DNA from: Nonlabens ponticola
GTDB taxonomy: Bacteria > Bacteroidota > Bacteroidia > Flavobacteriales > Flavobacteriaceae
Reading direction: 5' to 3'
Assembly: GCF_003966335.1 (NCBI RefSeq)
Contig: NZ_CP034549.1
Location: 840,001-872,000 of the forward strand
DNA: 32,000 nucleotides
Part shown: in pieces, positions 1 to 30,824 of the stretch
Layout of the letters: every line of letters starts with the position of its first letter
Position numbering within the stretch: the first letter of the stretch is position 1
The notes under the pieces: generated by a model
Databases searched by the model: none
What the model was told of the DNA's origin: nothing
Seen by the model: only the letters and a program-made list of their open reading frames with translations
Translations under genes and position numbers: made by a program

Positions 1-1320
1 ATCTTCACGGGCTTCCTCTCTGGTCTTTCCGTTCATGAGCGCCTCAGTCTGCGCGATAAAGTTTGCGATGAGTTTATTATGGTGATCAGGTTGTTGGTAT
101 TTTGCTTTCGCGAAAGCTATAAAATGAGCCGGTATCAACTTTGTTCCCTGATGTATCAATTGGAAAAAAGCATGTTGCGAGTTGGTTCCTGGTTCACCCC
201 AAACAATGTTGCCTGTTTCATAATTTATAGGAATACCATCACGAGAAATGCTCTTACCATTACTCTCCATTATAGCTTGTTGCAAGTAGGCCGGTAATTC
301 CTTTAAGTACTGGGTGTAAGGTATGATGGCCTCGCTCTGGGCTTTAAAGAAATTGTTATACCAGATGGTGAGTAGTGCCAGTTGCACCGGTATATTATCG
401 CGGAATTCCGCATCTTTAAAATGCTCATCCATGGCATGTGCGCCATTCAATAAATGCTGGAAATTGCTGGTGCCAACGCCCAACGCGACAGACATTCCTA
501 CTGTGCTCCACAAGGAGAAACGGCCGCCTACCCAATCAAACATCGGGAAAATATTGTCCTGTGCCACGCCAAATTCTACCGCACGATCCACATTACTGCT
601 CACGGCGATAAAATGCTTGCCTACTGCATCTTCATTCACTTGTTCTTTAAACCAGTTGCGTATTGTAGTAGCATTAGTCAACGTTTCCTGCGTGCCAAAA
701 GATTTTGAAACAATCACAAACAGCGTTGTTGCTGGATCGATTTTTTTAAGGGTTTCCATCACGTGGTCACCTTCTACATTTGACACAAAGTGCAGTTTAA
801 GATCGTTGTGATATGCCTCAAGTGCCTGGTATATCATCACGGGTCCTAGATCGCTGCCTCCTATACCTATATTGACAATAGTGTCAAACTTTTCACCATT
901 GGCAGCGGTTATTTCACCTGTAAGTACTTGATCTACATAAGTGAACATTTTCTCACGACTGGCTTGTGCGTCTTTTACATAAGACTTAATGTTAGAATCT
1001 GCCTTTTCCAATGGCGTGCGCAATGCGGTATGCAGCACTTCACGACCTTCAGTCGAATTAATTTTTTCTCCATCAAAATATGATTGGATAGCCTCATCGA
1101 GCTTGCACTCATTTGCAAGGTCAATCAGTACCTCACGCGTAGCTGGCGTGATGAGGTTTTTAGAAAGATCTACATAAAAATCCTCAAACTCAATGGTAAA
1201 TTCCTGAGCTCTATCGGGACTATTTTTAAAGGCTTCTTTTAGATCAAACTTCTTAAGATTGTCATAGTGCGCCTTTAGGCTGTTCCATGCGTTGGTGGTA
1301 GTTGGGTCTATATTTTTCAT
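1..1320 (-). CDS. pgi: Glucose-6-phosphate isomerase, partial (C-terminus beyond the window edge)
   Basis: It is absent from the ORF track because it runs off the window. I checked all 440 minus-strand codons from ATG 1320-1318 down to position 1 and found no stop. Translation starts MKNIDPTTTNAWNSLKAHYD, contains NIGIGGSDLGP (about 850-880) and ends FIAQTEALMNGKTREEARED at the edge. There is an ATGA overlap with the stop of the upstream gene. Confidence 0.9.
   Translation of the reverse strand, partial: MKNIDPTTTNAWNSLKAHYDNLKKFDLKEAFKNSPDRAQEFTIEFEDFYVDLSKNLITPATREVLIDLANECKLDEAIQSYFDGEKINSTEGREVLHTALRTPLEKADSNIKSYVKDAQASREKMFTYVDQVLTGEITAANGEKFDTIVNIGIGGSDLGPVMIYQALEAYHNDLKLHFVSNVEGDHVMETLKKIDPATTLFVIVSKSFGTQETLTNATTIRNWFKEQVNEDAVGKHFIAVSSNVDRAVEFGVAQDNIFPMFDWVGGRFSLWSTVGMSVALGVGTSNFQHLLNGAHAMDEHFKDAEFRDNIPVQLALLTIWYNNFFKAQSEAIIPYTQYLKELPAYLQQAIMESNGKSISRDGIPINYETGNIVWGEPGTNSQHAFFQLIHQGTKLIPAHFIAFAKAKYQQPDHHNKLIANFIAQTEALMNGKTREEARED
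104..117. repeat. Palindrome family copy 1 (core GCTTTCGCGAAAGC), inside pgi
   Basis: Exact 14-nt core. It is read on the minus strand as I-A-F-A-K-A-K-Y. Confidence 0.95.
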
Positions 1321-2549
1321 AAAGTTGCTGCGCCGGTTTGATAAGGCACCTCGTCTATTTCTTCCTTGAGAGGCATGATAAAGTTCTGGTAGTCTGCCAT
1401 TTTTGCTTGTGGTAATGGCTCTGCACTTGGTAAATTTTGTTTGTAGGGATCTACCTGCTTTCCATTGACCCAAAACCTGTAGCATACATGTGGTCCAGTA
1501 GCGAGTCCTGTGCTACCTACAGTTCCTATCACTTGACCCTGATCCACACGTTGACCAACACTTACTTTTCTTTTAGTCATGTGCAGATACTGCGTTTCAT
1601 AAGTGCCGTTGTGTCTAATTTTTACATAATTACCGTTACCGCGAGTGTAACCAGACTTTGTCACTATTCCATTTGCCGTGGCAACAATTGGCGTTCCATA
1701 GCCAGCAGCATAGTCAGTACCCTTATGTGCTTTCCATCTTTTTTGTACTGGGTGAAATCTGCGTTTTGTATATCTACTAGAGATGCGCGTGTAGTTCACA
1801 GGCGCTTTCAAGAAAAAGTTGCGCAGTGTGGCGCCTTCTTCATTATAATATTCATGAACGGCCTCAGTAGAATCTACTACATAATCAAATGCATAATAGG
1901 GCTTGTTGCCAGTTTCAAAAACAGCAACCTCAATCCTGTCAATACCTGCATAAATGCTGTCATTGATGTAGCGTTCTTGAAAGATCATCTTGAAACGATC
2001 GCCTTTTTGTAATTTAAAGAAGTCGATAGTCCATTTATATATGTCTGAGAGTTCATAGATCGCACTCATGCCCAGACCTTGATCTTCCATGGCTTCAGAT
2101 AGAGTAGTTTCTATGGTTCCAGCGGCAATCCTGCGTGAGTAGGTGATAGGATGTTTGTCCTGTGTCGCTTCAAGGTTCTCGTTAAGCGTCAACTTTACAT
2201 AATCCATACGGCTAGGCTCATAGATAAAAGCCTCTGGTGTGTGGACACTGTCCTTGCGTTTTAAAATTTTGAAAGGTTTTCCTGCCTGGATCTTACGCAA
2301 ATCATAAATCTCATTGAGCTCTACGGCTGCTTGATAGGCGCTTTGACCTTCTACTAGGTGTGGTGCAATGAGGTCATTAAAGGTATCACCGCTTTGCACG
2401 GTGTCCTCGACAATTTCATAATTATTCAAGTCATAACCGTACTGCATTACCGGTATTACTGGTTTGACCTCGGCGATTTGAACTTCTTGTTTCTCATCGC
2501 AGGAAGCTAGCACAAGCAAACTGCATACGGCAATTAAAAATCTATTCAT
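1317..2549 (-). CDS. M23 family metallopeptidase, lipoprotein
   Basis: Lipobox-like N-terminus MNRFLIAVCSLLVLASC. The C-terminal M23 signature is HKGTDYAA ... GNYVKIRH ... YLHM ... GSTGLATGPHVCYRF. Confidence 0.85.
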   Translation of the reverse strand: MNRFLIAVCSLLVLASCDEKQEVQIAEVKPVIPVMQYGYDLNNYEIVEDTVQSGDTFNDLIAPHLVEGQSAYQAAVELNEIYDLRKIQAGKPFKILKRKDSVHTPEAFIYEPSRMDYVKLTLNENLEATQDKHPITYSRRIAAGTIETTLSEAMEDQGLGMSAIYELSDIYKWTIDFFKLQKGDRFKMIFQERYINDSIYAGIDRIEVAVFETGNKPYYAFDYVVDSTEAVHEYYNEEGATLRNFFLKAPVNYTRISSRYTKRRFHPVQKRWKAHKGTDYAAGYGTPIVATANGIVTKSGYTRGNGNYVKIRHNGTYETQYLHMTKRKVSVGQRVDQGQVIGTVGSTGLATGPHVCYRFWVNGKQVDPYKQNLPSAEPLPQAKMADYQNFIMPLKEEIDEVPYQTGAATL

Positions 2550-2552
2550 TCT

Positions 2553-3524
2553 TTAATCTGTATTATAAATGTGTTCTACCCATTGCTTGCCCCAATCCTC
2601 TTTTTCTTGATCGCTCCACAAACCAGGGAAAAAGGACACTCGCTGAAAATGCGGTGGTAGGAATTCCTTCCAGTTGGTACCACCAGTAGCTTCAACAGCT
2701 TTTCCTTCCTTGCGCAAATATCTGTGTGCCGCGCCCATGTGCATCAATAACCAGTTGATATTGACATTTTGATCCATTGCGCGCAGTGCATCCTTGAGCG
2801 GCTGTGTTTGCTCACTTTCTGGCAACGATAAGTAACGCTGGTACAGGTTACTATGTTGTACTTGATGTGCGATTCTCAAGAATCTAGGCGTGTACCTTTT
2901 TTCAAATTGCTTCAGTGTGAGCGTTTTCTCGCCAGTAGTCTTGTCAATACCGCCTTTTTTCCAGTAAATATGGTTGTATAAAGTTGGGATGTCTGTGGTT
3001 GTTCCGCTTTCGCGAAAGCGTAATCTATCCTGATAATTAACAAGATTGATGACATCTGTATTATAGAATTCAATCATGCGGAATTGTGCACTCTGGAAAC
3101 CACTGGCTGGCAACAACGACATACGGAATTTCAAGAATTGATCACGTTCCATGCCCTTGATCATCACCTCAAAACTGTTGATGAGCATGGTAAAATACCT
3201 GTTGATGCGCGTCACTTTCTCAGTAAAGAAGCTTGCGGTGAGGTGTTCCTCTTCAATAATTTGTAGCTGCTCGTGGATGGCTAGCTTGAAGTAAAGCTCT
3301 GTGATTTGATGATAACCTATGAAGATCATCTCATCTGGAAATGGCGTGGATGGCACCTGTAAACTGAGTAAGGTGTCTAGCCTGATGTAATCCCAATAGG
3401 TGATGTACTGGTCATAGAGCAGTCCATCGAGGTAGGAAAGCATGTCCTGTCCAGAGTTCTTAAACTTTTTCTCTAGAAGTTTGATGCGTTGAGCAATTTC
3501 AGGAGTAATCTGGTCGTCTGCCAT
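2553..3524 (-). CDS. kynA: Tryptophan 2,3-dioxygenase
   Basis: 323 aa. The N-terminal LSYLDGLLYDQYITYWDYIRLDTLLSLQ and the helical heme-dioxygenase pattern are typical of bacterial TDO. It is clustered with hppD and hmgA. Confidence 0.8.
   Translation of the reverse strand: MADDQITPEIAQRIKLLEKKFKNSGQDMLSYLDGLLYDQYITYWDYIRLDTLLSLQVPSTPFPDEMIFIGYHQITELYFKLAIHEQLQIIEEEHLTASFFTEKVTRINRYFTMLINSFEVMIKGMERDQFLKFRMSLLPASGFQSAQFRMIEFYNTDVINLVNYQDRLRFRESGTTTDIPTLYNHIYWKKGGIDKTTGEKTLTLKQFEKRYTPRFLRIAHQVQHSNLYQRYLSLPESEQTQPLKDALRAMDQNVNINWLLMHMGAAHRYLRKEGKAVEATGGTNWKEFLPPHFQRVSFFPGLWSDQEKEDWGKQWVEHIYNTD
3005..3024. repeat. Palindrome family copy 2, inside kynA
   Basis: CGCTTTCGCGAAAGCGTAAT. It is read on the minus strand as R-L-R-F-R-E-S-G. 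Confidence 0.95.
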
Positions 3525-6308: not shown

Positions 6309-7459
6309 AGCCAACTCTTGTGATAGGAATCGTCTGCTATTTCTAGACCTTCTTTAGTCACTTTGAGTGGTTTAAAAGTATCTACCATTACGGCCAGTTC
6401 TTCGGTTTCAGTTTGTCCTATGCTACGTTCTACAGCTCCTGGATGAGGACCGTGAGGTATTCCTGCAGGATGTAGCGATATATGTCCAGCCTTGATGTCG
6501 TTACGGCTCATAAAGTCACCATCTACATAATACAAGACTTCATCACTATCGATGTTGCTGTGATTGTACGGTGCTGGTATGCTATCTGGATGATAGTCAT
6601 ACTTGCGCGGTACAAAACTACATACTACAAAAGCATCAGTCTCAAAGGTTTGATGTACCGGTGGTGGCTGGTGTATGCGACCAGTGATAGGTTCAAAATC
6701 GTGGATAGAAAATGCATACGGGTAATTATACCCATCATATCCAACCACGTCAAATGGATGCGAGGCATAAACCATTTCAAAAATCTCGTCCTGTTTCTTA
6801 ATCTTGATAAGGAACTCACCTTTTTCATCATGAGTATCTAGTGACTCTGGCCTGCGCAGGTCACGCTCACAAAATGGTGAGTGTTCCAGCAGTTGACCAA
6901 ACCAGTTGCGGTAGCGCTTGGGCGTGTAGATAGGTTTGCGACTTTCAACAATAAAAAGTCTGTTGACAGCGGTATCAAATTCTATTTGATAGATGATACC
7001 TCGAGGTATCAACAGGTAATCACCGTACTTGAATTCCAGATTACCTAGATGTGTGCGCAATACGCCACTACCTTTGTGTACAAACAATAACTCATCACTA
7101 TCAGAATTTTTATACCAGTAACCGGTCAGTGACTCTTGCGGCGATGCAAGGATAATATTGACATCTGCATTTGTGAGGACTGTCTTGCGGCTATCCAAGT
7201 AATCGGGTTGCGGCTTGATTTGAAAGCCCTTGAGCCGGTAACTTTTAATATGGTTTTCCAGCGCGATCTCTGGCTTTACAGAGTAACTGTTACGTATTTC
7301 CTTGACCATCGTTGGTCGGTGCTCATGATAGCTGTTGGTGTACATGCCATCAAATCCTATCGTGCCAAACAATTGCTCGTGATACAGCGAGCCATCTGGT
7401 TTTCTAAAAACCGTATGACGCTTGTGCGGTATCTTTCCTAGCTTGTGGTAAAAAGGCAT
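6302..7459 (-). CDS. hmgA: Homogentisate 1,2-dioxygenase
   Basis: 385 aa of the short bacterial HGD type, starting MPFYHKLGKIPHKRHTVFRKPDGSLYHEQLFG, with a cupin core. It is clustered with hppD. Confidence 0.88.
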   Translation of the reverse strand: MPFYHKLGKIPHKRHTVFRKPDGSLYHEQLFGTIGFDGMYTNSYHEHRPTMVKEIRNSYSVKPEIALENHIKSYRLKGFQIKPQPDYLDSRKTVLTNADVNIILASPQESLTGYWYKNSDSDELLFVHKGSGVLRTHLGNLEFKYGDYLLIPRGIIYQIEFDTAVNRLFIVESRKPIYTPKRYRNWFGQLLEHSPFCERDLRRPESLDTHDEKGEFLIKIKKQDEIFEMVYASHPFDVVGYDGYNYPYAFSIHDFEPITGRIHQPPPVHQTFETDAFVVCSFVPRKYDYHPDSIPAPYNHSNIDSDEVLYYVDGDFMSRNDIKAGHISLHPAGIPHGPHPGAVERSIGQTETEELAVMVDTFKPLKVTKEGLEIADDSYHKSWLE

Positions 7460-7567
7460 GATTGCTATTTATATTCGTAAATTTCGTGAATTCTCTAGAC
7501 CATTCCATGCAATAGGCTAATTTATTGATGCGGTGTCTATAAAAATGACGTGAAATTTTTTGGCATG

Positions 7568-7589
7568 TTACGCTTTCGCGAAAGCGTAA
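7568..7589. repeat. Palindrome family copy 3, the complete 22-nt form, intergenic
   Basis: TTACGCTTTCGCGAAAGCGTAA is a perfect palindrome. It begins 12 nt downstream of the patatin-like gene stop and lies upstream of hmgA. Confidence 0.97.
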
Positions 7590-7600
7590 TCCCAAAAAAT

Positions 7601-9838
7601 TTAAAACGCAAATCCCAGTTTTACATAGAATTCACCATCATCCTGCTGTGGGCTAAAGCTATATTTGAGTTCAATAGGACCAAGAAATGTATCAAGTCCA
7701 TATCCCAAAGCAAATCCAGAATAACGAGCCTTGCTGAACCAATCGTCCTGTTCAAAGAGATCGTCGTCAACGCTGGCGAAATTTGCACTAAAAATGACAT
7801 GGTTCTTACTGAATATCTCATAATCAATTTCAAACAGACTGCGTATCATGGTATTGCCGCCCAACGCTATAAAATCATATCCATAAAATGGTATGATATT
7901 ATTGATGCGTCTTGCGCCATAACCACCTAGGAAAAAATCTAGCGCGCTGGTGTCTGGATTACCTATGGCGATACCCACATGAGCTTCTCCTCGCAGGCTC
8001 AAATTACCAAATGATCTCGCGTGCCCGACCTTTAACTGAGCGATACTATATTCATTGTAATCATCTCGCTGTTCATCGTTATAGACATAGAGGTGAAAAT
8101 CACCATCAACTTCCCAGCCGCTGGATGGAAAAAAAGCATTGTCATAAGTGTCCAGCAGCAGCTTACCGTACAGACTACCGGTAAGACTGCTCTCTATATC
8201 TGTGCGACCTACGTCGGGATCGTTAGTAAGTAAAGTATTGGTGAAAACGTCCAGCGATTTGAGCTCAAGTCCTGTCTGCACATTGAATCCTCGATCCAGG
8301 CGTGTTTGCAAATAAACCTGCTGTGTCCAGTCGCTGTATTCTACATCCAGGCGATTGACGCCTAGTGGTTCTTGACCGGTAGTTTCCTCGGCAAAGCTGG
8401 CTGGTATATCCTTTTCAAATTGCACAAACTCGCTGTGCAATCCTATAGACCAATAGTTGCCCTTATCGATATAGTAATCAAAGTTGTAACGCAGGTTGTC
8501 GCCCAGTATCACATCTGCAGATATGATGTCATTATTAAACAAGATATTCTTGCGAGTAAGGTTGACAAGAGCGGCACTGCGCAGTAACTCGTCATAGTGC
8601 AGGCCCAAACGCAAGTAGTTGCGCACGGTACTTTCCTCTACCGTGATGGATAGTTCGCGGCGACCATCGTCTTCTAGGATCTCATAATTGATCTTGGTAA
8701 AGTTGTTTGTGGCCTGCAAATTATTGACGCCATTCCTTATGTCTTCATAACTAACAAGTCCTGGCGCATTGATCTTGAATTTACCTAGAATATAAGCGCG
8801 TGTGTAGCGCATGTTGCCATTTACATAGATGTGGTCTAGATAAAAACTGTCTGCTTGATCCACTTTTAATTTGGGCTTGCGATATCCAGGCGTGGCCACT
8901 TGCTTTAGGGCGTCCATTTTCTTTCTGGTGGCGATAACACCTTCATTGATTATTTTCCTACCATCGTCAAACGATATGACCGAGAATTTTGTGATGTCTG
9001 GAGTGATGTAAATATCTGTTTTGGGAGCTTTGACCTTCATGGCGTCAATCGTACGGAAGTTATTGATCTGCGCCAGGATTCCTGTTGCGCTCTCTAGCTC
9101 CTTGCGATCCTTGAGATCATCTTGAACGTCAACGCCTATGATGATGTCCATACCTTTGGCTCGTAGCTTCTCTACAGGATAATTGTCTGTCACGCCACCA
9201 TCTGTAAGTAGGCGATCACCTATTTGTACTGGTGCAAATAAGGATGGCAAGGCACCACTGGCATTAACTGCACGAGGCAAATAACCACTATCCAGTACTA
9301 CTTCTTCACCTGTGGTAATGTCTGTAGCCACGCAAAAAAACGGTATGGGCAATTTTTCAAAATCCTCTACATCACTTACATGTATCAATAATTGTGAGAG
9401 TAGGTTATAAACATTTTGACCTTTGCTCAAGGAACTGGGCAACCGCAATTGAAAATCCTCAAAAGGTAGTGTCAAGGCATACCGCTCATTCTCGCGCCGT
9501 TCATACAGTGTGGTCGCGCCACGCGGTATTTGATCAGAAATGATGTTCTCAAACTTGGTAATCTTGAAGACAGAATCAATTTGCTCGCCTGTGTAGCCGG
9601 CCGCATAAATCGATCCTATGATCGCGCCCATGCTCGTGCCAGCGATGTAATCCACCTTGATTCCTAGAGAGTCGATAACCTTGAGCGTTCCTATATGTGC
9701 GAGACCTTTAGCGCCGCCACCAGATAGCACGAGACCTATTTTAGGTGATTTTTTATCCTGAGTTTGTTGCGCTGTCAGGTATTCCGCTTTCGCGAAAGCT
9801 AAAACCAATAACAACCCAATAACACTATTCCTGCTCAC
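7601..9838 (-). CDS. Patatin-like phospholipase fused to an Omp85-type beta-barrel (PlpD-like, type Vd architecture)
   Basis: GTG start with a signal-like N-terminus. Patatin motifs are GGGAKG, GTSMG (GxSxG) and TDGGV (catalytic Asp). The long C-terminal half is rich in alternating beta-strand pattern and ends KLGFAF with a terminal aromatic residue. Confidence 0.8.
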   Translation of the reverse strand: MSRNSVIGLLLVLAFAKAEYLTAQQTQDKKSPKIGLVLSGGGAKGLAHIGTLKVIDSLGIKVDYIAGTSMGAIIGSIYAAGYTGEQIDSVFKITKFENIISDQIPRGATTLYERRENERYALTLPFEDFQLRLPSSLSKGQNVYNLLSQLLIHVSDVEDFEKLPIPFFCVATDITTGEEVVLDSGYLPRAVNASGALPSLFAPVQIGDRLLTDGGVTDNYPVEKLRAKGMDIIIGVDVQDDLKDRKELESATGILAQINNFRTIDAMKVKAPKTDIYITPDITKFSVISFDDGRKIINEGVIATRKKMDALKQVATPGYRKPKLKVDQADSFYLDHIYVNGNMRYTRAYILGKFKINAPGLVSYEDIRNGVNNLQATNNFTKINYEILEDDGRRELSITVEESTVRNYLRLGLHYDELLRSAALVNLTRKNILFNNDIISADVILGDNLRYNFDYYIDKGNYWSIGLHSEFVQFEKDIPASFAEETTGQEPLGVNRLDVEYSDWTQQVYLQTRLDRGFNVQTGLELKSLDVFTNTLLTNDPDVGRTDIESSLTGSLYGKLLLDTYDNAFFPSSGWEVDGDFHLYVYNDEQRDDYNEYSIAQLKVGHARSFGNLSLRGEAHVGIAIGNPDTSALDFFLGGYGARRINNIIPFYGYDFIALGGNTMIRSLFEIDYEIFSKNHVIFSANFASVDDDLFEQDDWFSKARYSGFALGYGLDTFLGPIELKYSFSPQQDDGEFYVKLGFAF
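9786..9802. repeat. Palindrome family copy 4, inside the patatin-like gene signal peptide
   Basis: Exact core plus a TAA arm. It is read on the minus strand as L-A-F-A-K-A-E-Y. Confidence 0.95.
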
Positions 9839-11624: not shown

Positions 11625-11631
11625 AGCACAG

Positions 11632-11639
11632 TAAAGGTA
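11632..11639 (-). promoter_or_regulatory. Weak -7 box candidate TACCTTTA upstream of uvrC
   Basis: Near match to TAnnTTTG on the minus strand, 8 nt upstream of ATG 11624. Palindrome copy 5 lies 18 nt further upstream. Confidence 0.2.
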
Positions 11640-11656
11640 GGATTTATGATGAGTTT

Positions 11657-13021: not shown

Positions 13022-13069
13022 GCAAATCAATTGAATCTTGAGATTTAGAACTTAGAACCAAGGAATTTT

Positions 13070-19470: not shown

Positions 19471-19472
19471 GG

Positions 19473-20000: not shown

Positions 20001-20013
20001 GGTTCAATATGAT

Positions 20014-20526
20014 TTACTCTTCTTCGCTTGATGCGTCAGTAGCTGCATCTTGAGCAGCTGGCTCTTCTACAGCAGGCTCTGGAGTATTTGCAGCGATACG
20101 TGCTTCATTTACTGCTTTCTCAGCTTCAAGAGCTTTGGCAGCTTCTTTCTCTTCGGCAGCTTGCAGTCCAGATGCTTTGTCAGCAATCTTTCCTTCTTTT
20201 TCACTTACCCAAGAATTGAATTTTTCTTCCATTTGCTCTTCAGTAAATGCTCCTTTTTTCACACCACCTTTAAGGTGTCTTTTAAGCATCACACCTTTGT
20301 AGCTCAAGATTCCTCTTGCAGTGTCAGTAGGTTGTGCACCGTTTTCTAACCACTTTACAGATCCATCAACGTCTAGGTTGATAGTTGCTGGGTTTGTATT
20401 AGGGTTGTAAGTTCCTAGTTTCTCTAGGTATTTACCATCTCTCTTTGAGCGAGAGTCTGCAGCGACGATCCAGTAAAATGGTTTTCCTTTTTTACCGTGT
20501 CTTTGAAGTCTGATTTTTACAGGCAT
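20014..20526 (-). CDS. rpsP: 30S ribosomal protein S16 with an Ala/Glu-rich C-terminal extension
   Basis: [42 protein letters not shown] is canonical S16. An extra low-complexity tail of about 80 aa follows. Confidence 0.92.
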
Positions 20527-20573
20527 AACATTAAATTTGTGGGTTCCCGACCCTGATTATTAATTTGAGGTTG

Positions 20574-20581
20574 CAAAAGTA
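20574..20581 (-). promoter_or_regulatory. Candidate -7 box TACTTTTG upstream of rpsP
   Basis: Exact TAnnTTTG on the minus strand, about 48 nt upstream of ATG 20526. Confidence 0.4.
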
Positions 20582-20621
20582 TCATTATTTTAATTATCAA
20601 CAAGGTGTCTTTTTAAATAAT

Positions 20622-20629
20622 TACTTTTG
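20622..20629 (+). promoter_or_regulatory. Candidate -7 box TACTTTTG upstream of the lipoprotein gene
   Basis: Exact TAnnTTTG, 20 nt upstream of ATG 20650. Confidence 0.35.
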
Positions 20630-20649
20630 GCTCTTAAAATTCTAACTGC

Positions 20650-21465
20650 ATGACTTTCAAAAAAGTACTCCTTATTATGCTTGCCACGATAGCCTTTTAT
20701 TCTTGTGAGGATAACTTGGACGTGGACAACAAGCCAGCGATACAGGCATTGCGCAATAACGAGTTCTTTGATGCTAGAGAGATGAGTGCCACCACTAATA
20801 GTGATGGTACCGTGACTATTGTTGGTCAAAGCGTACAGGATCGATTGGAAATAAATATCTCTTCATCAAATCCCAGTATCTATGTACTGGGACAAGGAAG
20901 TCCTAATGAGGCAAAATATACCGTTAACAACAGTATAGTTTTTTCAACTCGTACAGGAGACAGCAACGGTGTCGTTGAGGTTGAGCCTAGTCTTGAGGAC
21001 GGCACTATCTCGGGAACTTTTAACTTTATAAGCTTTTTGCCTAATGCTACAGACACGTTGGTTATGCGTCGTGGTGTGTTCTATCAGGTGCCATTCGGTT
21101 CTCAGGTTGGATCTAGTGTAGTTAACAATTTATCCGCAAGAATTGCTGGCGAGAACTTTAGACCTACTAGTGTGAACCCGCAAAATAATAATGACCTTGT
21201 AACCGTCACAGCAACAGGTAGTACGCGACAAGTGGTATTGAGTTTTCCTGATAACATTGCCGTAGGATCCTATGATATCAATGGAGATGGAGATATCGCC
21301 GCAGCGCTAGTAGTAGATGGCAACCAGAATGCCGCAGTGTCAGGTAGGCTAGAGGTAACATCAGTAAATAGGGTCAACGGCCAGGTGAGCGGTACATTTG
21401 AGTTCCTTACAGAGCCGCCAACGAGCATCAATGTCACCAACGGTACTTTTACCGTTACCCTATAA
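20650..21465 (+). CDS. Hypothetical lipoprotein with two tandem homologous domains
   Basis: Lipobox MLATIAFYSC. The two halves end in similar motifs (DGTISGTFNFISF ; NGQVSGTFEFLTE). It may belong to the DUF6252 family, but that is recollection only. Confidence 0.55.
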   Translation: MTFKKVLLIMLATIAFYSCEDNLDVDNKPAIQALRNNEFFDAREMSATTNSDGTVTIVGQSVQDRLEINISSSNPSIYVLGQGSPNEAKYTVNNSIVFSTRTGDSNGVVEVEPSLEDGTISGTFNFISFLPNATDTLVMRRGVFYQVPFGSQVGSSVVNNLSARIAGENFRPTSVNPQNNNDLVTVTATGSTRQVVLSFPDNIAVGSYDINGDGDIAAALVVDGNQNAAVSGRLEVTSVNRVNGQVSGTFEFLTEPPTSINVTNGTFTVTL

Positions 21466-21900
21466 TTTAAGGTACATAAATTTACCGCTGTAATCGATGA
21501 CAGCCTTGCTCGCTACCAGGAAATCTGCGCCCAGCAGTCCTTGAATAGAACGCATGCCTTCGGCCTTGAGTGCGGTGTTGATAAAGGTCATGTCCATGGA
21601 GAGTAGCGTGGTATCCTCATCATTCCAATCGCCTAATTCCAGCATGTTGTTATGAGAGATTCTAGGACGCAGCGAGCCACTTGCGGTCCCTATTTCTTTA
21701 CCCATAAACTCTGTCGTGAGGTCAAAATCCTTGTATAACGCTTGATCGACGCATGTTGCACTCGCGCCAGTGTCAATAATAAACCTGCCTTGATGTCCAT
21801 TTATGCTTGCTTTGGTCACGATATGACCACTCTTTTTGGATAGGCGTATGCGATGTTGCACATAGCCTTTATCAAGTAACAGTTTTTTTAAAGAGGTCAT
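21460..21900 (-). CDS. Retropepsin-like (clan AA) aspartic protease, single domain
   Basis: 146 aa. RFIIDTGASATCVD carries the D-T-G-A catalytic motif. The size fits a monomer that must dimerise. Confidence 0.65.
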   Translation of the reverse strand: MTSLKKLLLDKGYVQHRIRLSKKSGHIVTKASINGHQGRFIIDTGASATCVDQALYKDFDLTTEFMGKEIGTASGSLRPRISHNNMLELGDWNDEDTTLLSMDMTFINTALKAEGMRSIQGLLGADFLVASKAVIDYSGKFMYLKL

Positions 21901-21913
21901 GTGACTTTTGAGA

Positions 21914-21932
21914 ATTACGCTTTCGCGAAAGC
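21914..21932. repeat. Palindrome family copy 8, intergenic (protease/tatD divergent region)
   Basis: ATTACGCTTTCGCGAAAGC. Confidence 0.95.
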
Positions 21933-21939
21933 AAAATTA
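21932..21939 (-). promoter_or_regulatory. Candidate -7 box TAATTTTG upstream of the protease gene, abutting palindrome copy 8
   Basis: Exact TAnnTTTG on the minus strand. Its last G is the first base of the palindrome core. It lies 31 nt upstream of ATG 21900. Confidence 0.3.
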
Positions 21940-22006
21940 TAACAACCCAATCTAACAAGGCACTATTTTATAAACACTACATGATGTGGTTGACAAGTGA
22001 GCCGAA

Positions 22007-22014
22007 TATCTTTG
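22007..22014 (+). promoter_or_regulatory. Candidate -7 box TATCTTTG upstream of tatD
   Basis: Exact TAnnTTTG only 4 nt before ATG 22019, which implies a leaderless or very short-leader mRNA. Confidence 0.3.
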
Positions 22015-22018
22015 CACC

Positions 22019-22789
22019 ATGATATTGACAGATACACACACGCATTTATATAGCGAGCAATTTGACGAGGATAAACAGGAAATGATTCAGCGTGCGATGG
22101 ATCGAGGCGTACAGCGTTTTTTCCTACCAGCAATTGATGCGAGTTATACAGATAGTATGCGTGAATTGAAAAAGGCTTTTCCCGAGAATTTTTTCCTCAT
22201 GAGCGGTTTGCATCCTACACATGTGAAAGATGAGGATATGAATGAGCAATTAGACCATGTCTATGCCCAACTGCAAACTGGTGATTATGTAGCGGTAGGT
22301 GAGATAGGCATTGATTTATATTGGGATAAAAGCACGCTGGATGTACAGGTAGCAGCTTTCAAGAAACAGATAGAATGGTCACTTGAGTTTGAGTTACCCA
22401 TAGTAATTCACTGTCGTGATGCATTTGATGAGGTGTTTGATGTGCTGGAACAATACAAGAACACAAAATTGCACGGTATTTTTCACTGTTTTACAGGAAC
22501 TCAAGAGCAAGCACAGCAAGCGATAGGTTATAATATGAAATTGGGAATAGGTGGCGTAGTAACTTTTAAAAATGGTAAGATTGATAAGTTTTTAGAAGAA
22601 GTGCCGATCGAGCATATTGTACTAGAGACTGATGCACCTTACTTATCACCTACACCGCACCGCGGCAAACGCAACGAGAGTGCTTATCTTAAAATTGTGG
22701 CTCAAAAGGTGGCTGACATCTATGGTTTAAGCCTTGAAGAAACAGCGCGCGTTACCACCTTAAATTCTCGTGAAGTCTTCGGTTGCTAG
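22019..22789 (+). CDS. TatD family metal-dependent hydrolase/DNase
   Basis: MILTDTHTHLYS (HxH), GEIGIDLYW, VIHCRDA, HCFTG and LETDAPYL. Confidence 0.88.
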   Translation: MILTDTHTHLYSEQFDEDKQEMIQRAMDRGVQRFFLPAIDASYTDSMRELKKAFPENFFLMSGLHPTHVKDEDMNEQLDHVYAQLQTGDYVAVGEIGIDLYWDKSTLDVQVAAFKKQIEWSLEFELPIVIHCRDAFDEVFDVLEQYKNTKLHGIFHCFTGTQEQAQQAIGYNMKLGIGGVVTFKNGKIDKFLEEVPIEHIVLETDAPYLSPTPHRGKRNESAYLKIVAQKVADIYGLSLEETARVTTLNSREVFGC

Positions 22790-23961
22790 ATGATGGTTTG
22801 CTTACTTTTGAAGACACTGTAAAATCCCCTAGTTTGTCTTCTTACAACGATATTAGATTCTTTAATGATCCAGAAGTGATTGTCGCGCTCAAGAGTGCCG
22901 TGCGTCACCCGATGATTAAGGAATTGTTCAAATACACTTTTCCTGATAAAGATCAAGAAGAGATCAAAAAGATCGTGTTGAAGTGCGAGAGTATTGATGA
23001 TTTTCAGCGTGAAGTCATTAGCAAAACGGTAGAGCGTATTCTTGAAGACACGTCGGCTGGATTGACGACGAGCGGTTTTGATGATCTTGACTCTAACACA
23101 TCCTATTTATACATCTCCAATCATAGGGATATAGTTTTGGATACCTGTTTGCTCAATTACAAGTTGTTTGAATATGACTTGATACGCACGGCAAATGCCA
23201 TCGGCGATAACCTTGTGACTAGACCATTTGTAAATGCATTGAGTAAATTGACGCGCAATTTTACCGTCAAGCGCGGTGGCACACCTCGAGAGACGCTAGT
23301 AAGTAGTAAAAAGCTGAGTCAATACATCGAGAAATTATTGAAAGAAGATAAGCGCAGTGTCTGGATCGCGCAGCGACAAGGAAGAACTAAAGATGGTAAT
23401 GATCTTACTGAACAAGGCGTGCTCAAAATGATCGCGCTAGCTGCTGGCAAACGGCCGGTTGCTGATTACTTGAACAGCTTGCGCATTATTCCTGTATCGA
23501 TTTCCTATGAATATGATCCTACAGATTTGCTCAAGGTGCCAGAATTGCTTGCCAAACAAGCTGATGAGGAATACATCAAATCAGAAAATGAGGATTTCAA
23601 CTCCATACTTAAAGGTGCGCTGGGTCAAAAGAAACATATCCATATCCATGCTGGCAAGCCGCTAGATATAAAGGATACTGGTGAGCCAACTAACGCATTG
23701 CTTCAAGATGTGGTGGACCACTTAGACACCACTATCCAGAAAAATTACCATTTGTGGCCTACCAATTACATCGCGCACGATTTGTTGAATGATGCCAAAG
23801 AACACCGTACACATTACACAGATAAAGACCTAGCTCAATTTGAACGCAGGTTGCGACTGCGCGTTGATGTGAGTGACAAGGATGCTGTCAACAGTTATTT
23901 ATCAATGTACGCACGACCAGTCACTAATAAACTATTTATAGAACAGCCGCATGAAGCCTAG
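22783..23961 (+). CDS. PlsC-like acyltransferase family protein
   Basis: The SNHRDIVLDT block resembles the acyltransferase H(x)nD motif. The start is uncertain: only TTG codons (22783, 22798) precede the conserved N-terminal region. Confidence 0.55.
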   Translation: MLDDGLLTFEDTVKSPSLSSYNDIRFFNDPEVIVALKSAVRHPMIKELFKYTFPDKDQEEIKKIVLKCESIDDFQREVISKTVERILEDTSAGLTTSGFDDLDSNTSYLYISNHRDIVLDTCLLNYKLFEYDLIRTANAIGDNLVTRPFVNALSKLTRNFTVKRGGTPRETLVSSKKLSQYIEKLLKEDKRSVWIAQRQGRTKDGNDLTEQGVLKMIALAAGKRPVADYLNSLRIIPVSISYEYDPTDLLKVPELLAKQADEEYIKSENEDFNSILKGALGQKKHIHIHAGKPLDIKDTGEPTNALLQDVVDHLDTTIQKNYHLWPTNYIAHDLLNDAKEHRTHYTDKDLAQFERRLRLRVDVSDKDAVNSYLSMYARPVTNKLFIEQPHEA

Positions 23962-25024
23962 GATTTTACTCATCTATACCGGAGGTACGATAGGTATGAT
24001 CAAGGATCCAGAAACGCAGGCGCTCAAATCTTTCAATTTTGATGAGTTGCTGTTGCATATTCCAGAGATCAAATTGCTGGATTGTGAGATAAGTACGACC
24101 TCGTTCAAGCAACCTATCGATTCGTCAGACATGAACATTCATCACTGGCGCCACATAGGCGATGTGATCCATGATGCATACGATGATTATGAGGGTTTTG
24201 TGGTATTGCACGGTAGCGATACGATGTCCTATACGGGTAGTGCGCTTAGTTTCATGTTTGAAAACCTTACCAAGCCCATCATTTTCACAGGTTCCCAATT
24301 ACCTATTGGTGACTTGAGGACAGATGCCAAAGAAAATTTGATCACCAGCCTGCAGCTCGCTATCCAGCAAGAGCGTGGCAAGCCAGTGATTCAAGAAGTC
24401 TGCATTTATTTTGAATATCAATTATATCGAGCCAACCGCACGGTCAAGGCAAATGCTGAGCATTTTGAGGCTTTCAAGTCGCCCAACTATCCGCCGCTTG
24501 CGATAAGTGGTGTGATGCTCAATATTGATAAGTCATTGTTGTGGCAAGGTGATTATGATTATTTAGCTTTCGCGAAAGCTGACAAACCCAAAACACCTAA
24601 ACAAAAAGAAAGGATGTTCTACCGTCCAGAATTTGTGGACAAAGTAGTGGTACTCAAAATATTCCCTGGAATAACGCAAGCTGTGGTAAGTGCCATTTGC
24701 AACATAGAAGGCATCAAGGGAATCATTCTTGAATCCTATGGCAGTGGCAACGCGCCAACTGAGGATTGGTTCCTAAATACAATTGTGAGCGCTATAAAAA
24801 AAGGAATTAAAGTAGTGAATGTTACCCAATGTCATGGCGGTAGCGTGATGATGGGTAAGTATGAGACCAGTGTACAGTTGTTGTCTATGGGCGTCATATC
24901 AGGCAAGGATATCACCACCGAGGCTGCGCTTGCCAAAATGATGTATCTACTTAATTATGCGACAGATAAAGAGACATTCTCTAGCTATTTTACCAAGTCC
25001 TTGAGAGGTGAGCTTACCGAATAG
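23951..25024 (+). CDS. ansA: L-asparaginase, type I (cytoplasmic)
   Basis: LLIYTGGTIGM (catalytic Thr), VVLHGSDTMSYT and ILESYGSGNAP. Confidence 0.88.
   Translation: MKPRILLIYTGGTIGMIKDPETQALKSFNFDELLLHIPEIKLLDCEISTTSFKQPIDSSDMNIHHWRHIGDVIHDAYDDYEGFVVLHGSDTMSYTGSALSFMFENLTKPIIFTGSQLPIGDLRTDAKENLITSLQLAIQQERGKPVIQEVCIYFEYQLYRANRTVKANAEHFEAFKSPNYPPLAISGVMLNIDKSLLWQGDYDYLAFAKADKPKTPKQKERMFYRPEFVDKVVVLKIFPGITQAVVSAICNIEGIKGIILESYGSGNAPTEDWFLNTIVSAIKKGIKVVNVTQCHGGSVMMGKYETSVQLLSMGVISGKDITTEAALAKMMYLLNYATDKETFSSYFTKSLRGELTE
24563..24580. repeat. Palindrome family copy 9, inside ansA
   Basis: TTAGCTTTCGCGAAAGCT. It is read on the plus strand as L-A-F-A-K-A-D. Confidence 0.95.
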
Positions 25025-25071
25025 GATATTGCTTGCTCAACAGTTTATAAAATTGTAATCTTGCACCATCT

Positions 25072-25156
25072 AGTGAGGTGGCCGAGCGGTCGAAGGCGCA
25101 CGCCTGGAAAGCGTGTAAACGGCAACGTTTCGAGGGTTCGAATCCCTTCCTCACTG
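25072..25156 (+). tRNA. tRNA-Ser (anticodon GGA)
   Basis: Hand-folded cloverleaf. Acceptor AGTGAGG/CCTCACT. D arm GCC...GGC. Anticodon stem CACGC/GCGTG with loop CTGGAAA. Long variable arm AAACG-GCA-CGTTT. T arm GAGGG-TTCGAAT-CCCTT. CCA is not encoded. Confidence 0.9.
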
Positions 25157-25165
25157 CAACGTGAT

Positions 25166-25206
25166 AAATCCCAATTCTTAGTTTAGAATCGGGATTTTTT
25201 GTTTTT
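25166..25206 (+). terminator. Intrinsic terminator after tRNA-Ser
   Basis: 11-bp stem ATCCCAATTCT/AGAATCGGGAT with one mismatch and a 6-nt loop, followed by TTTTTTGTTTTT. Confidence 0.75.
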
Positions 25207-25362
25207 GGTTGCAATTGGGAGTTGAGGATGCCTCAGGAAAAATCTTTGTTTTATTACAAGTATTATTCTGATATCTGAAAATTATTTCCAATGAAATAGC
25301 TTGTCAAGATCTGGAAATGGGCAATTAATTGCTTCTATAGGTTTAATGTTTAGGGTGATTTT

Positions 25363-25383
25363 GTTTTCGCGAAAGCGTAATTA
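25363..25383. repeat. Palindrome family copy 10 (one core mismatch), intergenic downstream of tRNA-Ser
   Basis: GtTTTCGCGAAAGCGTAATTA. Confidence 0.85.
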
Positions 25384-25572
25384 CAACGATCCATACCTCT
25401 ATATGATACGTATGTAAACGATAGAAAGATATTCATTAGGCGTTACTAAAGTCAGGCCTCGCTCATAAGGGTAAAATAATTCAATACCTAATGCTTAATA
25501 ATTCGGTTTGTAAGGAAGAAATTATATATTTAGCCCTTTGTTAGAAAATTACATAAATCAATAAATTTTAAA

Positions 25573-26355
25573 ATGAAACGATCACTTTCAATTTTGTTCA
25601 TGGCAGTCGTTATGGTATTAGGTATGTCAACTACTGCGACGGCAACTACAACAACTACAACCGCTGCGGTTACTACTATGGTAACAACGCAGGATGAGCC
25701 AGCTACTACAGAGAATGTAAGCTTTCACCAGGAACTCAAGAAGAGATTCATTGAAGGTGGCCCAATCTTTATGTCTATCGTACTGGTTTGTTTGATTCTA
25801 GGTCTTGCAATCGCTATTGAACGCATTATTTATTTGAACCTATCCACTACGAATTCAAAGAAGCTAGCTGCTGATGTTGAGGAAGCATTGAAATCTGGTG
25901 GTATCGAGGCTGCTAAGGATGTGTGTCGCAACACAAAAGGTCCTGTTGCTTCTATCTACTATCAAGGTCTTGACAGAGCCGATGAGAGTGTTGAGGCTGC
26001 TGAGAAAGCTGTCGTGGCTTACGGTGGTGTTCAAATGGGACAACTTGAAAAGAACGTATCATGGGTATCCTTGTTTATTGCTCTTGCACCTATGCTTGGG
26101 TTTATGGGTACGGTAATAGGTATGATCAAGTCATTTGATAGTATTGCCGAGGCTGGTACTATGGAGCCTGCACTTGTTGCAACAGGTATCAAGGTAGCAC
26201 TTCTTACAACCGTATTTGGTCTTATCGTAGCGATCATCCTTCAAATCTTTTACAACTATATCGTTGCAAAGATTGATAGTATCGTGAACGACATGGAAGA
26301 TGCTTCTATTACTCTTATCGACATCCTTGTAGACTACAAGAACGGTAAGCTGTAA
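25573..26355 (+). CDS. exbB: MotA/TolQ/ExbB proton channel protein
   Basis: Signal-like N-terminus, then a Thr-rich segment, and three TM segments with the conserved LAPMLGFMGTVIGMI...ALLTTVFGL core. Confidence 0.88.
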   Translation: MKRSLSILFMAVVMVLGMSTTATATTTTTTAAVTTMVTTQDEPATTENVSFHQELKKRFIEGGPIFMSIVLVCLILGLAIAIERIIYLNLSTTNSKKLAADVEEALKSGGIEAAKDVCRNTKGPVASIYYQGLDRADESVEAAEKAVVAYGGVQMGQLEKNVSWVSLFIALAPMLGFMGTVIGMIKSFDSIAEAGTMEPALVATGIKVALLTTVFGLIVAIILQIFYNYIVAKIDSIVNDMEDASITLIDILVDYKNGKL

Positions 26356-27472: not shown

Positions 27473-27475
27473 TCA

Positions 27476-29372: not shown

Positions 29373-29375
29373 AGG

Positions 29376-30824
29376 CTATATTTCCTTACGTAGTCTAGCT
29401 ACTGGTATGTCTAGCTGCTCACGATACTTGGCAACTGTACGTCGTGCGATGGGATAACCTTTTTCTTTGAGGATTTCGGCTAGCTTCTGGTCAGTGAGTG
29501 GTTTTTTCTTGCTTTCCTCACTGATGACTGTCTCAAGAATCTTCTTGATCTCTCGCGTAGATACCTCTTCTCCATCAGTATTTGTCATGGATTCAGAAAA
29601 GAATTCTTTGATCAATTTAGTACCGTAAGGTGTGTCAACATATTTTGAATTTGCTACACGTGATACGGTAGAAACATCCATATGGATCTCGTCTGCAATA
29701 TCCTTGAGAATCATGGGTCTCAAGTTGCGTTCATCTCCTGTTAGGAAATATTCTTTTTGATAGTTCATGATGGATGACATGGTCATAAACAATGTCTCTT
29801 GGCGCTGTTTGATGGCTTCTATGAACCATTTGGCACCATCAAGCTTTTGCTTGATGAACATCACCGCATCTTTTTGCGATTTGGTTTTTTCCTTGGCTTC
29901 CTTGTAGCCTTTCAGCATGTTGGAATAGTCACGAGACACGTGCAACTGTGGTGTGTTGCGACCATTAAGTGTTAATTCTAGCTCACCATCTTTTATACGT
30001 ATAGCAAAATCTGGAACCACTTGCTCCACAATGCGTGTGCTGCCGCCAGCATAGGAGCTACCAGGCTTAGGGTTTAAGTGGCTTATCTCATCAATGGCAT
30101 CGCGCAATTGAATCTCGTCAATGTTATACTTTGCGAGTAACTTCTTGTAATGCTTCTTGCTAAATGCATCAAAGGATTCACTCACCATCTTCAAGGCAAG
30201 ATCTGTTGTTGGATTGTTACGCTTTCGCGAAAGCTGAATCACTAAACACTCCTTCAAATCTCTAGCGCCTACACCAGCTGGATCCAGATCGTGCACGACT
30301 TTAAGAACGCGCTCCACGGTCTCAACATCAGTATAGATGTTCATGGTGAAGGCAAGATCATCTGTAATATCCTCGAGCGATCGTCGTATGTAACCACTAC
30401 TGTCGATACTGCCCACAAGAAACTCTGCGATGGCACGATCGTTATCACTCAACCTGCGCGTGTTTAATTGATCTTTAAGCGTTTGGGTAAAGGATTTGCC
30501 GGATGCATACGGTATGCTGGTTTCCTCATCGTCCGCGCTGTAATTATTGGCTCTGGTGCGATATTCTGGTATCTCATCGTCACTCAGGTAGTCATCGACA
30601 TTGATTTCAGGCTCTGGTGCCTCGTCATAATCATTCTCGTTTGAGAACTCGTCATACTCATCATCACTTTTTTCCTTGCCGTTATCCAGCGCTGGATTTT
30701 CCTCAAGCTCTGACTTAACGCGCTGTTCAAAAGCCTGTGTAGGCAGCTGTATCAACTTCATGAGTTGTATTTGCTGCGGCGATAGCTTTTGACTGAGCTT
30801 GAAATTTAAGGACTGTTTAAGCAT
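29376..30824 (-). CDS. rpoN: RNA polymerase sigma-54 factor
   Basis: N-terminal Gln/Leu-rich region, an acidic region, and the C-terminal RpoN box ARRTVAKYREQL. Confidence 0.92.
   Translation of the reverse strand: MLKQSLNFKLSQKLSPQQIQLMKLIQLPTQAFEQRVKSELEENPALDNGKEKSDDEYDEFSNENDYDEAPEPEINVDDYLSDDEIPEYRTRANNYSADDEETSIPYASGKSFTQTLKDQLNTRRLSDNDRAIAEFLVGSIDSSGYIRRSLEDITDDLAFTMNIYTDVETVERVLKVVHDLDPAGVGARDLKECLVIQLSRKRNNPTTDLALKMVSESFDAFSKKHYKKLLAKYNIDEIQLRDAIDEISHLNPKPGSSYAGGSTRIVEQVVPDFAIRIKDGELELTLNGRNTPQLHVSRDYSNMLKGYKEAKEKTKSQKDAVMFIKQKLDGAKWFIEAIKQRQETLFMTMSSIMNYQKEYFLTGDERNLRPMILKDIADEIHMDVSTVSRVANSKYVDTPYGTKLIKEFFSESMTNTDGEEVSTREIKKILETVISEESKKKPLTDQKLAEILKEKGYPIARRTVAKYREQLDIPVARLRKEI
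30217..30234. repeat. Palindrome family copy 11, inside rpoN
   Basis: TTACGCTTTCGCGAAAGC. It is read on the minus strand as Q-L-S-R-K-R-N. Confidence 0.95.

Follow-up and report, generated by a model that had tools for sequence, protein, structure and literature searches.

A lineage-restricted, exactly conserved palindrome dispersed in Nonlabens and Dokdonia genomes: a candidate self-recognition sequence of the uptake-sequence/HIP1 class

Iterated signal sequences are rare and informative: uptake signal sequences (USS) and DNA uptake sequences (DUS) revealed self-specific uptake, Chi revealed the control of RecBCD, and the explanation of the highly iterated palindrome HIP1 is still in progress after 30 years. 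Uptake sequences are under-represented in coding DNA, biased in reading frame and absent from genes without homologues, and have been modelled as the product of molecular drive (PMC2817400). The USS consists of a core with informative flanks, and a second USS nearby adds nothing to uptake (PMC7811141); significant even spacing of USS was reported by Karlin, as cited in a later paper (PMC1939737). HIP1 is described in a recent report as conserved, quasi-periodic and linked to transformation (10.64898/2026.06.24.733823), and the NTS/SRM repeats modulate transformation (PMC11893778). In the present study, a stretch of 32,000 nucleotides from Nonlabens ponticola (contig NZ_CP034549.1, positions 840,001 to 872,000; hereafter the window) was analysed for a dispersed palindrome, GCTTTCGCGAAAGC, and compared with these systems. 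With its 14-16 bp, the core is perfectly palindromic and usually takes the form CGCTTTCGCGAAAGCG. By analogy with the systems above, it is best read as a recognition sequence that selection or drive maintains, of the same class as USS, DUS and HIP1.

Eleven copies were found in the window, nine of them exact (starting at 104, 3006, 7572, 9786, 11657, 15857, 21919, 24566 and 30221), one with a single mismatch and one split by a 21-nt insert. Motif search and sequence reading thus confirmed the copies listed in the initial annotation of this DNA, including the complete 22-mer TTACGCTTTCGCGAAAGCGTAA at 7568-7589, and every octamer GCGAAAGC or GCTTTCGC in the window proved to be a member of the palindrome family. 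Dinucleotide shuffles scored at up to two mismatches gave a mean of 0.13 matches, with none of 100 shuffles reaching ten, in agreement with the claim that the family is real and dispersed. Beyond the window, one genome per species was scanned with the 22-mer, the output being 8-kb stretches chosen for holding it. At least 120 such stretches were obtained, all those listed lying in Nonlabens, Dokdonia and uncultured Flavobacteriaceae metagenome-assembled genomes (MAGs), plus a single Croceitalea stretch; by our arithmetic, about 0.03 matches to the 22-mer would arise by chance in the scanned collection. Among the matches listed, the 22-mers are dispersed along chromosomes, from 0.57 to 2.98 Mb in Dokdonia sp. 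R86516. The blocks hold 257 cores in 938 kb, with genes called as the greedy longest open reading frames (ORFs), so that start codons are approximate, and 287 exact cores were counted in 1.055 Mb of motif-bearing DNA, compared with about 0.002 expected from base composition. The initial annotation had asked whether the frequency might be no higher than composition predicts; it is far higher, both in the window and in this larger sample.

A syntenic 21-kb locus around the gene for glutaryl-CoA dehydrogenase, a protein that in the window matches its N. ponticola counterpart at 100% identity, was taken from six relatives. Exact cores numbered three in N. antarcticus (L121), eight in Nonlabens sp. 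Hel1_33_55 (L122), five in an N. tegetincola-like genome (L123) and five, with five further near-copies, in Dokdonia sinensis (L125). No core was present in the loci of Croceibacter (L124) and Marixanthomonas (L126), even at two mismatches, and no other iterated palindrome was seen in these two loci. These counts indicate that the motif is clade-specific and not limited to the window, or to a single genome, a restriction that had been considered earlier: it occurs across Nonlabens, Dokdonia and the allied MAGs. In the literature searched, we found no paper containing the 14-mer or describing such a motif in Nonlabens, Dokdonia or Bacteroidota.

The copies are conserved in position as well as in sequence. 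N. ponticola and Hel1_33_55 have 6-7 of 8 sites in common. Orthologous positions are occupied in the spacer between the genes for TatD and an Asp-protease (four species), at methyltransferase codons (four Nonlabens species, degenerate in Dokdonia), in the patatin signal peptide, in the spacer following the patatin gene, in the spacer upstream of exbB and at the DUF3050 N-terminus, and the shared sites persist despite flanks that can no longer be aligned. At four-fold degenerate sites of the dehydrogenase gene, N. ponticola and its relatives are only 32-42% identical, which amounts to saturation, and at this divergence the probability that 14 neutral bases remain unchanged is below 1e-5. Neutral positions have been randomised, whereas at the shared sites the palindrome has stayed exact. 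Copies with zero, one and two mismatches number 287, 25 and 26 in the 1.055 Mb, compared with about 0.002, 0.08 and 1.7 expected by composition; about 125 of the 287 exact copies were ascertained by the search, and without them the ratio of exact to one-mismatch copies is still about 6:1. The copies in the window, with gene calls made via Pfam, are as follows.

104-117, minus strand: exact 14-mer in pgi, encoding AFAKA within HFIAFAKAKYQQPDHH; Pgi reads FIAFAKAKYQQPDHH, and E. coli Pgi (FIAPAITHNPLSDHH) is of equal length at the motif position, hence no indel
3006-3019: exact 14-mer in the tryptophan 2,3-dioxygenase gene, encoding (R)FRES, with the right flank GTAA
7568-7589: full intergenic 22-mer, 16 nt past the patatin stop codon and 113 nt before the homogentisate dioxygenase start; its orthologue in Hel1_33_55 is L122:20794
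9786-9799: exact 14-mer in the part of a patatin/Omp85 gene that encodes the signal peptide (..LLVLAFAKAEY..); L122 is occupied at the same position (18578)
11657-11670: exact 14-mer in the divergent thioredoxin/uvrC spacer, 33 nt upstream of the true uvrC ATG (11624); no copy at this locus in L121 or L122
15857-15870: exact 14-mer, read as TLSRKR, close to the 5' end of the gene for the DUF3050 protein; also in L122
18832-18866: split copy in a tRNA/MTS methyltransferase gene, read as GCTTTC[CTGCCTCGCCGGCAGGCAGGC]GCGAAAGC, with an in-frame 21-nt GC-rich hairpin at its centre (+7 aa); three further Nonlabens species have an intact palindrome at these codons (RFRES)
21919-21932: exact 14-mer in the divergent Asp-protease/TatD spacer; present at the orthologous locus of L121, L122 and L123, with unalignable flanks
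24566-24579: exact 14-mer, read as AFAKA, in the linker between the asparaginase domains, a segment of hypervariable length; L122 has a copy in the same linker
25363-25376: copy with one mismatch, GTTTTCGCGAAAGC, in the spacer that separates tRNA-Ser from exbB; its counterparts at the orthologous position of L121 (2104) and L122 (1064) are exact
30221-30234: exact 14-mer in the rpoN core-binding domain, encoding LSRK(R); Dokdonia RpoN has QLDRKTETK, of the same length

Seven of these copies are coding and four intergenic, and Pfam upheld both this division and the gene names previously assigned. The spacing of 0.8-4.9 kb, spanning genes, likewise agrees with the earlier judgement that this is not a CRISPR array, in which regular repeats of 25-40 bp alternate with spacers of 25-70 bp. 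The extended asymmetric flank signal, the regular spacing and the positional conservation were absent from the initial annotation and were found in the present study.

Coding copies of the palindrome take over pre-existing codons by point substitution. Homologous proteins with and without the motif are of equal length at the motif in each of the following cases.

DUF3050: RItlsrkrLL with the motif; RISDNRKRLL, KIQPLQDKLQ and RIKPYRDTLL in relatives without it
DnaE (Dokdonia): LItlsrkhNIKL with the motif; LIKLAKAHDIKI and LVELAKKHEVKL in relatives without it (TLSRKH versus KLAKAH and ELAKKH)
RpoN: IQLSRKRNNPT with the motif; LQLDRKTETKA in Dokdonia without it
Acyltransferase: FSALSRKRSYLY with the motif; FDDLDSNTSYLY in relatives without it (ALSRKRS versus DLDSNTS)
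tRNA methyltransferase: EFRFRESELITTY in N. antarcticus; EFSFQKNNPSLEK in Marixanthomonas without the motif (EFRFRESEL versus EFSFQKNNP)

At the DNA level, the methyltransferase gene with the motif and its homologue without it already have 11 of 18 bases in common, by manual count. Among 47 deduplicated pairs of homologues with and without the motif, 74% are gap-free within 8 aa, and the amino-acid identity of the flanks is 43% near the motif compared with 62% elsewhere in the same alignments, suggesting that the motif settles in permissive segments. Some host segments, namely the asparaginase linker and the methyltransferase tail, are length-hypervariable, and the motif either sits in such indel-prone regions or promotes them; between Nonlabens species, the segments at 24500-24640 (linker) and 18736-18900 (tail) vary in length by up to about 15 residues. 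The 21-nt GC-rich hairpin of the split copy (CCTGCCTGCCGGCGAGGCAGG in gene orientation, 18838-18858) occupies the exact centre of the palindrome and adds ACLPARQ, and no second copy of it was present in any DNA fetched. Dokdonia sinensis carries an independent 42-nt insertion at the same methyltransferase site (L125, about 9790-9832), and these two independent insertions at one site suggest that the palindrome centre is prone to insertion. No target duplications were seen around the copies and no transposase lies near them, the latter as noted before for the window; the only GIY-YIG domain in the window is that of UvrC, and no gene recurs between closely spaced copies.

After the ascertained copies were dropped (n = 164), 94 copies were coding (57%), 66 intergenic and four on gene edges; together with the seven coding copies among the 11 of the window, this supports the earlier statement that the family is not a classical extragenic repeat. 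Density was 0.107 copies per kb in coding DNA and, among spacers, 0.30 in convergent, 0.48 in co-directional and 0.63 in divergent ones. The 94 coding copies are read as AFAKA (55), FRES (23) and LSRK (16). A conserved-peptide artefact, raised as a possible explanation, was rejected, since all three frames and intergenic DNA are used and the same codons lack the motif in the sister genera Croceibacter and Marixanthomonas. The copies also avoid one another below about 1.5-2 kb, giving a quasi-regular spacing of about 3 kb. In 120 blocks, 15 pairs lie less than 1.5 kb apart, compared with 66.4 +/- 6.7 at random placement, and none of 5000 simulations was as low. Seven consecutive intervals in L122 all measure 2.2-3.7 kb, with a coefficient of variation (CV) of 0.18 (P about 1e-4), and the intervals of the window have a CV of 0.42 (P about 0.002); the window and L122 are orthologous, so that these two statistics are not independent of each other, and the analysis of the 120 blocks is independent of both. 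The densest cluster seen, an exception to the spacing rule, has three cores within 2.1 kb (L030:4036-6124). Two of these lie in a gene for an Eco57I-family N6-methylase (503 aa) and an adjoining ORF of 200 aa without a Pfam match, and this Eco57I-type pair was in no other fetched locus.

A signal extends outward from the core, as profiled from 328 arms free of ascertainment. C stands at -1 in 83% of arms, T at -3 in 72%, T or G at -4 and A at -5 in 49%; from -4 to -19, C is depleted to 2-11% (background 19%), G and T are enriched, and T peaks at -4, -7, -10 and -13, symmetrically on both strands. On the 3' side, each strand shows the mirror image, poor in G and rich in A and C. The optimal form is ATTAC-core-GTAAT with about 13-19 more C-poor, G/T-rich bases 5' on each strand, an informative footprint of about 40 bp. 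The pattern is identical in coding and intergenic copies and thus is not a codon effect, and the composition of the flanks explains the tendency of the motif, in proteins, to stand after hydrophobic and before hydrophilic residues, as at the ends of signal peptides. Hairpin pairing does not account for the flank pattern: real copies fold at -8.08 kcal/mol and chimeras of left and right halves at -7.88 kcal/mol, and covariation between the flanks is marginal, which argues against a selected long hairpin. A long hairpin or cruciform element was rejected on these grounds. The half-sites vary almost independently, and recognition of the duplex by a dimer would fit this better. Within the core, GCGAAAGC forms the 3' half on either strand, and the order of overlap is fixed, with 287 occurrences of GCTTTCGCGAAAGC and none of GCGAAAGCTTTCGC. 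Outside the motif, TCGCGA was observed 127 times compared with 120 expected; it is neither avoided nor enriched, so that no restriction or modification footprint is visible.

Several simpler functions were considered and rejected. A promoter element at fixed distance is not indicated, as the copies lie at widely varying distances from start codons, most of them at 14-315 nt and a few beyond 800 nt; TAnnTTTG, the Bacteroidetes -7 box, shows a weak bump 56-85 nt from the core. Nor is an intrinsic terminator, which would be a GC-rich hairpin with a T-run after it at a gene end, since none of eight copies in 7000-26000 was called terminator-like and, among spacers, density is lowest in convergent ones; at 7572 the order is T-run, hairpin, A-run. 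At the gathering threshold, no family of Rfam 15 covers the motif, and the window matches only two ordinary features, tRNA-Ser(GGA) at 25072-25157 (+) and the S16-Flavobacteria ribosomal leader just upstream of rpsP at 20530-20564 (-; 39.7 bits, gathering score 35.7). In Nonlabens ulvanivorans (L066), the 22-mer lies at 7568-7589 of its block, the same coordinates as in the window; the sequences are unrelated (28% positional identity) and the agreement is a coincidence. A k-mer table of the Dokdonia sinensis locus (L125) also revealed a tandem repeat, with about 11 counts for a 12-mer like GACTACCGACTA.

The motif is found in viral DNA as well. IMG/VR yielded 40 stretches with the 16-mer, the multi-copy contigs being mostly of low GC content. 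One of them (L156; contig 3300039191_000376, 2014-14143) encodes a tape measure, a portal, a major head protein and a protease, its cores being spaced by 4.5-5 kb, and phage structural modules with the core are also present in L134, L143 and L144, partly intragenic as AFAKA or LSRK. Among the cultured phages of INPHARED, no match to the 16-mer or 17-mer was obtained, which is weak evidence, BLAST being blind to bare 14-mers.

Herein, we propose that GCTTTCGCGAAAGC is an iterated recognition sequence, non-mobile and peculiar to the lineage of Nonlabens and Dokdonia, bound as duplex by a dimer and serving as a 'self' tag for uptake or recombination, a proposal that we favour tentatively and would place a little short of probable. 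The clade-specific abundance, the substitutional origin at permissive sites, the frame bias, the intergenic enrichment, the flanks, the stability and the spacing lead us to assign the motif to the uptake-sequence/HIP1 kind, and by that analogy it probably acts as a self-DNA tag read by a putative dimeric protein. New copies arise by point substitution, or at most by conversion of very short patches, at places that can accept them; these are spacers between genes, signal peptides, linkers and protein segments of poor conservation. Strong selection or biased fixation would then keep the copies exact, and a further one would be favoured only without another within about 2 kb, yielding the quasi-regular array of about 3 kb. 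The dimeric, sequence-specific protein whose existence we infer would bind the duplex palindrome and mark the DNA as 'self' for uptake, homologous recombination or both, and fragments or alleles with a good site would preferentially be taken up or recombined and thereby spread, as for USS, DUS and, as proposed, HIP1.

Several points weigh against this proposal. Natural competence is not documented for Nonlabens or Dokdonia in the literature searched, and no gene for a receptor, a methylase or another partner came to light. The palindromy, the length of 14-16 nt, the lack of a terminator role and the lowest density in convergent spacers are unlike known USS and DUS. The ratio of exact to one-mismatch copies in USS is much less steep than the 6-11:1 or so observed here, and this cliff suggests a per-site constraint stronger than uptake drive alone usually gives. 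A dimer binding duplex DNA leaves the 3-nt period of T and the G/T versus A/C asymmetry of the flanks unaccounted for, and the presence of the motif in (pro)phage structural modules fits our proposal and its rivals alike. Finally, the counts beyond the syntenic loci rest on 8-kb blocks chosen for holding the 22-mer, a choice that was corrected for where it matters.

Among the alternatives, self-insertion by a miniature mobile element has been largely refuted, and we regard it as extremely improbable. The initial annotation had listed a miniature mobile palindrome among the candidate roles and had drawn an analogy with Rickettsia palindromic elements (RPE); a miniature inverted-repeat transposable element (MITE), a repetitive extragenic palindrome (REP) or REPIN mobilised by RAYT, or an Ssn-associated hairpin repeat would belong here too. 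A dispersed, palindromic family of high copy number is what such an element would leave, two independent insertions did occur at the centre of one copy, and some intergenic differences in presence align as gaps of about 13-14 nt, in regions too diverged to interpret. However, protein and DNA alignments of orthologues show homologous codons replaced without any change in length, so that the RPE analogy fails for want of in-frame insertion. The copies moreover repel each other instead of clustering, keep their positions across species and show at most weak covariation of their arms, and close pairs share no recurrent gene; neither target duplications nor a transposase accompany them, the sole GIY-YIG domain of the window being UvrC. 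A methyltransferase or very-short-patch-type repair system might instead recognise the core, which contains TCGCGA and CGCG, and convert near-matches to exact copies. Active correction could yield the excess of exact copies and would act on resident (pro)phage DNA, which has the motif too, and HIP1 is recognised by two methylases with a methylation-dependent effect on transformation, according to two reports (10.64898/2026.06.24.733823; 10.1101/2024.09.10.611283). We nevertheless consider such a system very unlikely: TCGCGA outside the motif leaves no footprint, correction at any of 14-16 positions would be unprecedented, and biased repair offers no account of why copies exclude one another within about 2 kb.

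A function in situ deserves more weight, although we think it on the whole unlikely. On this view, a DNA-binding protein peculiar to the lineage would occupy the copies as an array of high-affinity sites; it might organise the nucleoid, spread in the manner of Noc or ParB, anchor loops, act as a roadblock or regulate genes globally. Each site would be under direct purifying selection because the cell needs one every few kb. The perfect dyad core with almost independent half-sites, the very sharp cliff between exact and one-mismatch copies, the orthologous positions kept despite saturated neutral divergence and the regular spacing with its exclusion zone of 1.5-2 kb would all be expected, and density peaks in promoter-containing spacers (divergent versus convergent), with the TAnnTTTG bump near the core. 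On the other hand, hundreds of sites with 14-16 invariant bp are unlike known nucleoid or regulator regulons: parS, the Noc-binding sites (NBS), matS and the SlmA-binding sites (SBS) comprise tens of degenerate sites. The half-sites are spaced as TTTC-N2-GAAA and not as the TTTC-N4-GAAA of parS and NBS, more than half of the unbiased copies are genic with variable distances from starts, phage structural genes carry the motif too, and no candidate protein was found. Improbable, in our estimation, is a function in single strands, by which a mini-hairpin of GCGAAAGC would stall 3' exonucleases or a helicase-nuclease and leave a RecA-favourable G/T-rich 3' tail, as a bidirectional Chi-like or a priming signal acting wherever DNA is single-stranded, be it at breaks after resection, in the template of the lagging strand or in transforming strands as they enter. 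The oligonucleotide d(GCGAAAGC) is an extraordinarily stable, nuclease-resistant DNA mini-hairpin with a melting temperature of 76.5 C and occurs at phage single-stranded DNA priming origins (PMC13037366). The fixed order of overlap in the core would follow, as would the strand asymmetry of the flanks (5' C-poor, 3' G-poor) and their T period of 3 nt in coding and intergenic copies alike. Such a period is natural for RecA-type binders of single-stranded DNA and unnatural for recognition of one face of B-DNA, and the density of about one per 3-4 kb resembles that of E. coli Chi. This argument proceeds by sequence resemblance alone, however, and known Chi sites are non-palindromic and 5-8 nt long. 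The symmetry reaches -1 and -3 to -5, which is superfluous for a mini-hairpin and expected of a dimeric duplex binder, and the 14-mer folds at only -2.1 kcal/mol with the ViennaRNA DNA parameters, in which the special mini-hairpin is not modelled.

An invariant palindrome of 14-16 bp holds far more information than chance or a typical regulator site would supply, and its occurrence at hundreds of orthologous positions in two genera, at near-ruler spacing, implies a dedicated, so far unknown recognition machinery in widespread marine bacteria. More cautiously still, the motif may be the first genome-wide 'self' signal in Bacteroidota, a palindromic site of about 40 bp at quasi-regular intervals of about 3 kb, with a mechanism not yet described; this might be a duplex-reading dimeric receptor for uptake or recombination, or a Chi-like signal active in both directions, in which a GCGAAAGC mini-hairpin stops nucleases and a G/T-rich 3' tail suits RecA. 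In either case, abundant marine Flavobacteriaceae would possess an unrecognised natural transformation or a new system of recombination control. The motif offers a handle on the choice between self-preferring transformability and a new system of recombination or chromosome organisation in marine Flavobacteriia, with the 22-mer as bait and motif-positive and motif-negative sister genera for phylogenetic profiling. Its inclusion in donor DNA may improve genetic tools, and it marks taxa sharply, which could be of use in the binning of metagenomic contigs and in the assignment of phages to hosts in Nonlabens and Dokdonia.

The palindrome compares with the known systems in the following manner. DNA uptake sequences had been named as one of its closest analogies, and the shared evolutionary signatures uphold this: like USS and DUS, it is a short exact motif with hundreds of copies or more per genome, which related genera have in common and neighbouring genera lack; it is genic and intergenic, with intergenic enrichment and reading-frame bias; it originated by substitution at poorly conserved protein positions; and it has a core with weaker informative flanks and a spacing more even than random. 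In contrast to the oriented, non-palindromic 9-12-mers of USS and DUS, which often form inverted pairs in terminators and are flanked by AT-tracts in helical phase, it is a perfect palindrome of 14-16 bp at a density about three times lower, with no use of terminator pairs, a steeper cliff between exact and near-exact copies and G/T-rich flanks of 3-nt period. HIP1 (GCGATCGC) of cyanobacteria is likewise palindromic, hyper-abundant, coding and non-coding, conserved and quasi-periodic. It differs in sequence, is 8 bp long, much denser and phylum-wide, whereas the present motif is confined to two genera and allied MAGs; the cognate methylases DmtA and DmtC are known for HIP1, and none is known for the Nonlabens/Dokdonia palindrome. 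The function of HIP1 was long unexplained, and a link to transformation is now suspected (10.64898/2026.06.24.733823).

With REP and bacterial interspersed mosaic elements (BIME), REPIN-RAYT and NTS/SRM, the motif shares the character of a dispersed palindromic repeat with hundreds of copies. Those families are extragenic, imperfect, oriented hairpins, often clustered or flanking a nuclease or transposase gene, whereas the present copies are 57% coding (94/164), mutually repelling and substitutional, with no partner gene seen, RAYT genes not having been sought genome-wide. In the NTS/SRM-Ssn system, an oriented repeat of 20-50 nt lies by a small single-domain GIY-YIG gene; our motif is symmetric, without an orienting flank, and the only GIY-YIG domain in the window is UvrC, the genomes not having been searched for ssnA. 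RPE are also palindromic repeats within conserved ORFs, of about 100-150 bp, and add residues in frame by insertion, whereas the present motif usually adds no length. A density of about one per 3-4 kb and a G/T-rich context are reminiscent of Chi, which is short, oriented and read as single-stranded DNA, and the dyad layout TTTC...GAAA recalls parS and NBS, which number tens of sites and have a 4-bp centre in place of the 2-bp centre found here; to our knowledge, none of Chi, parS, NBS and matS is 14-16 bp long, invariant and present at hundreds of positions. The assignment of the palindrome to the uptake-sequence/HIP1 kind therefore draws on its evolutionary signatures, which resemble those of uptake sequences and HIP1 and not those of elements of the REP, MITE, RPE or Ssn type.

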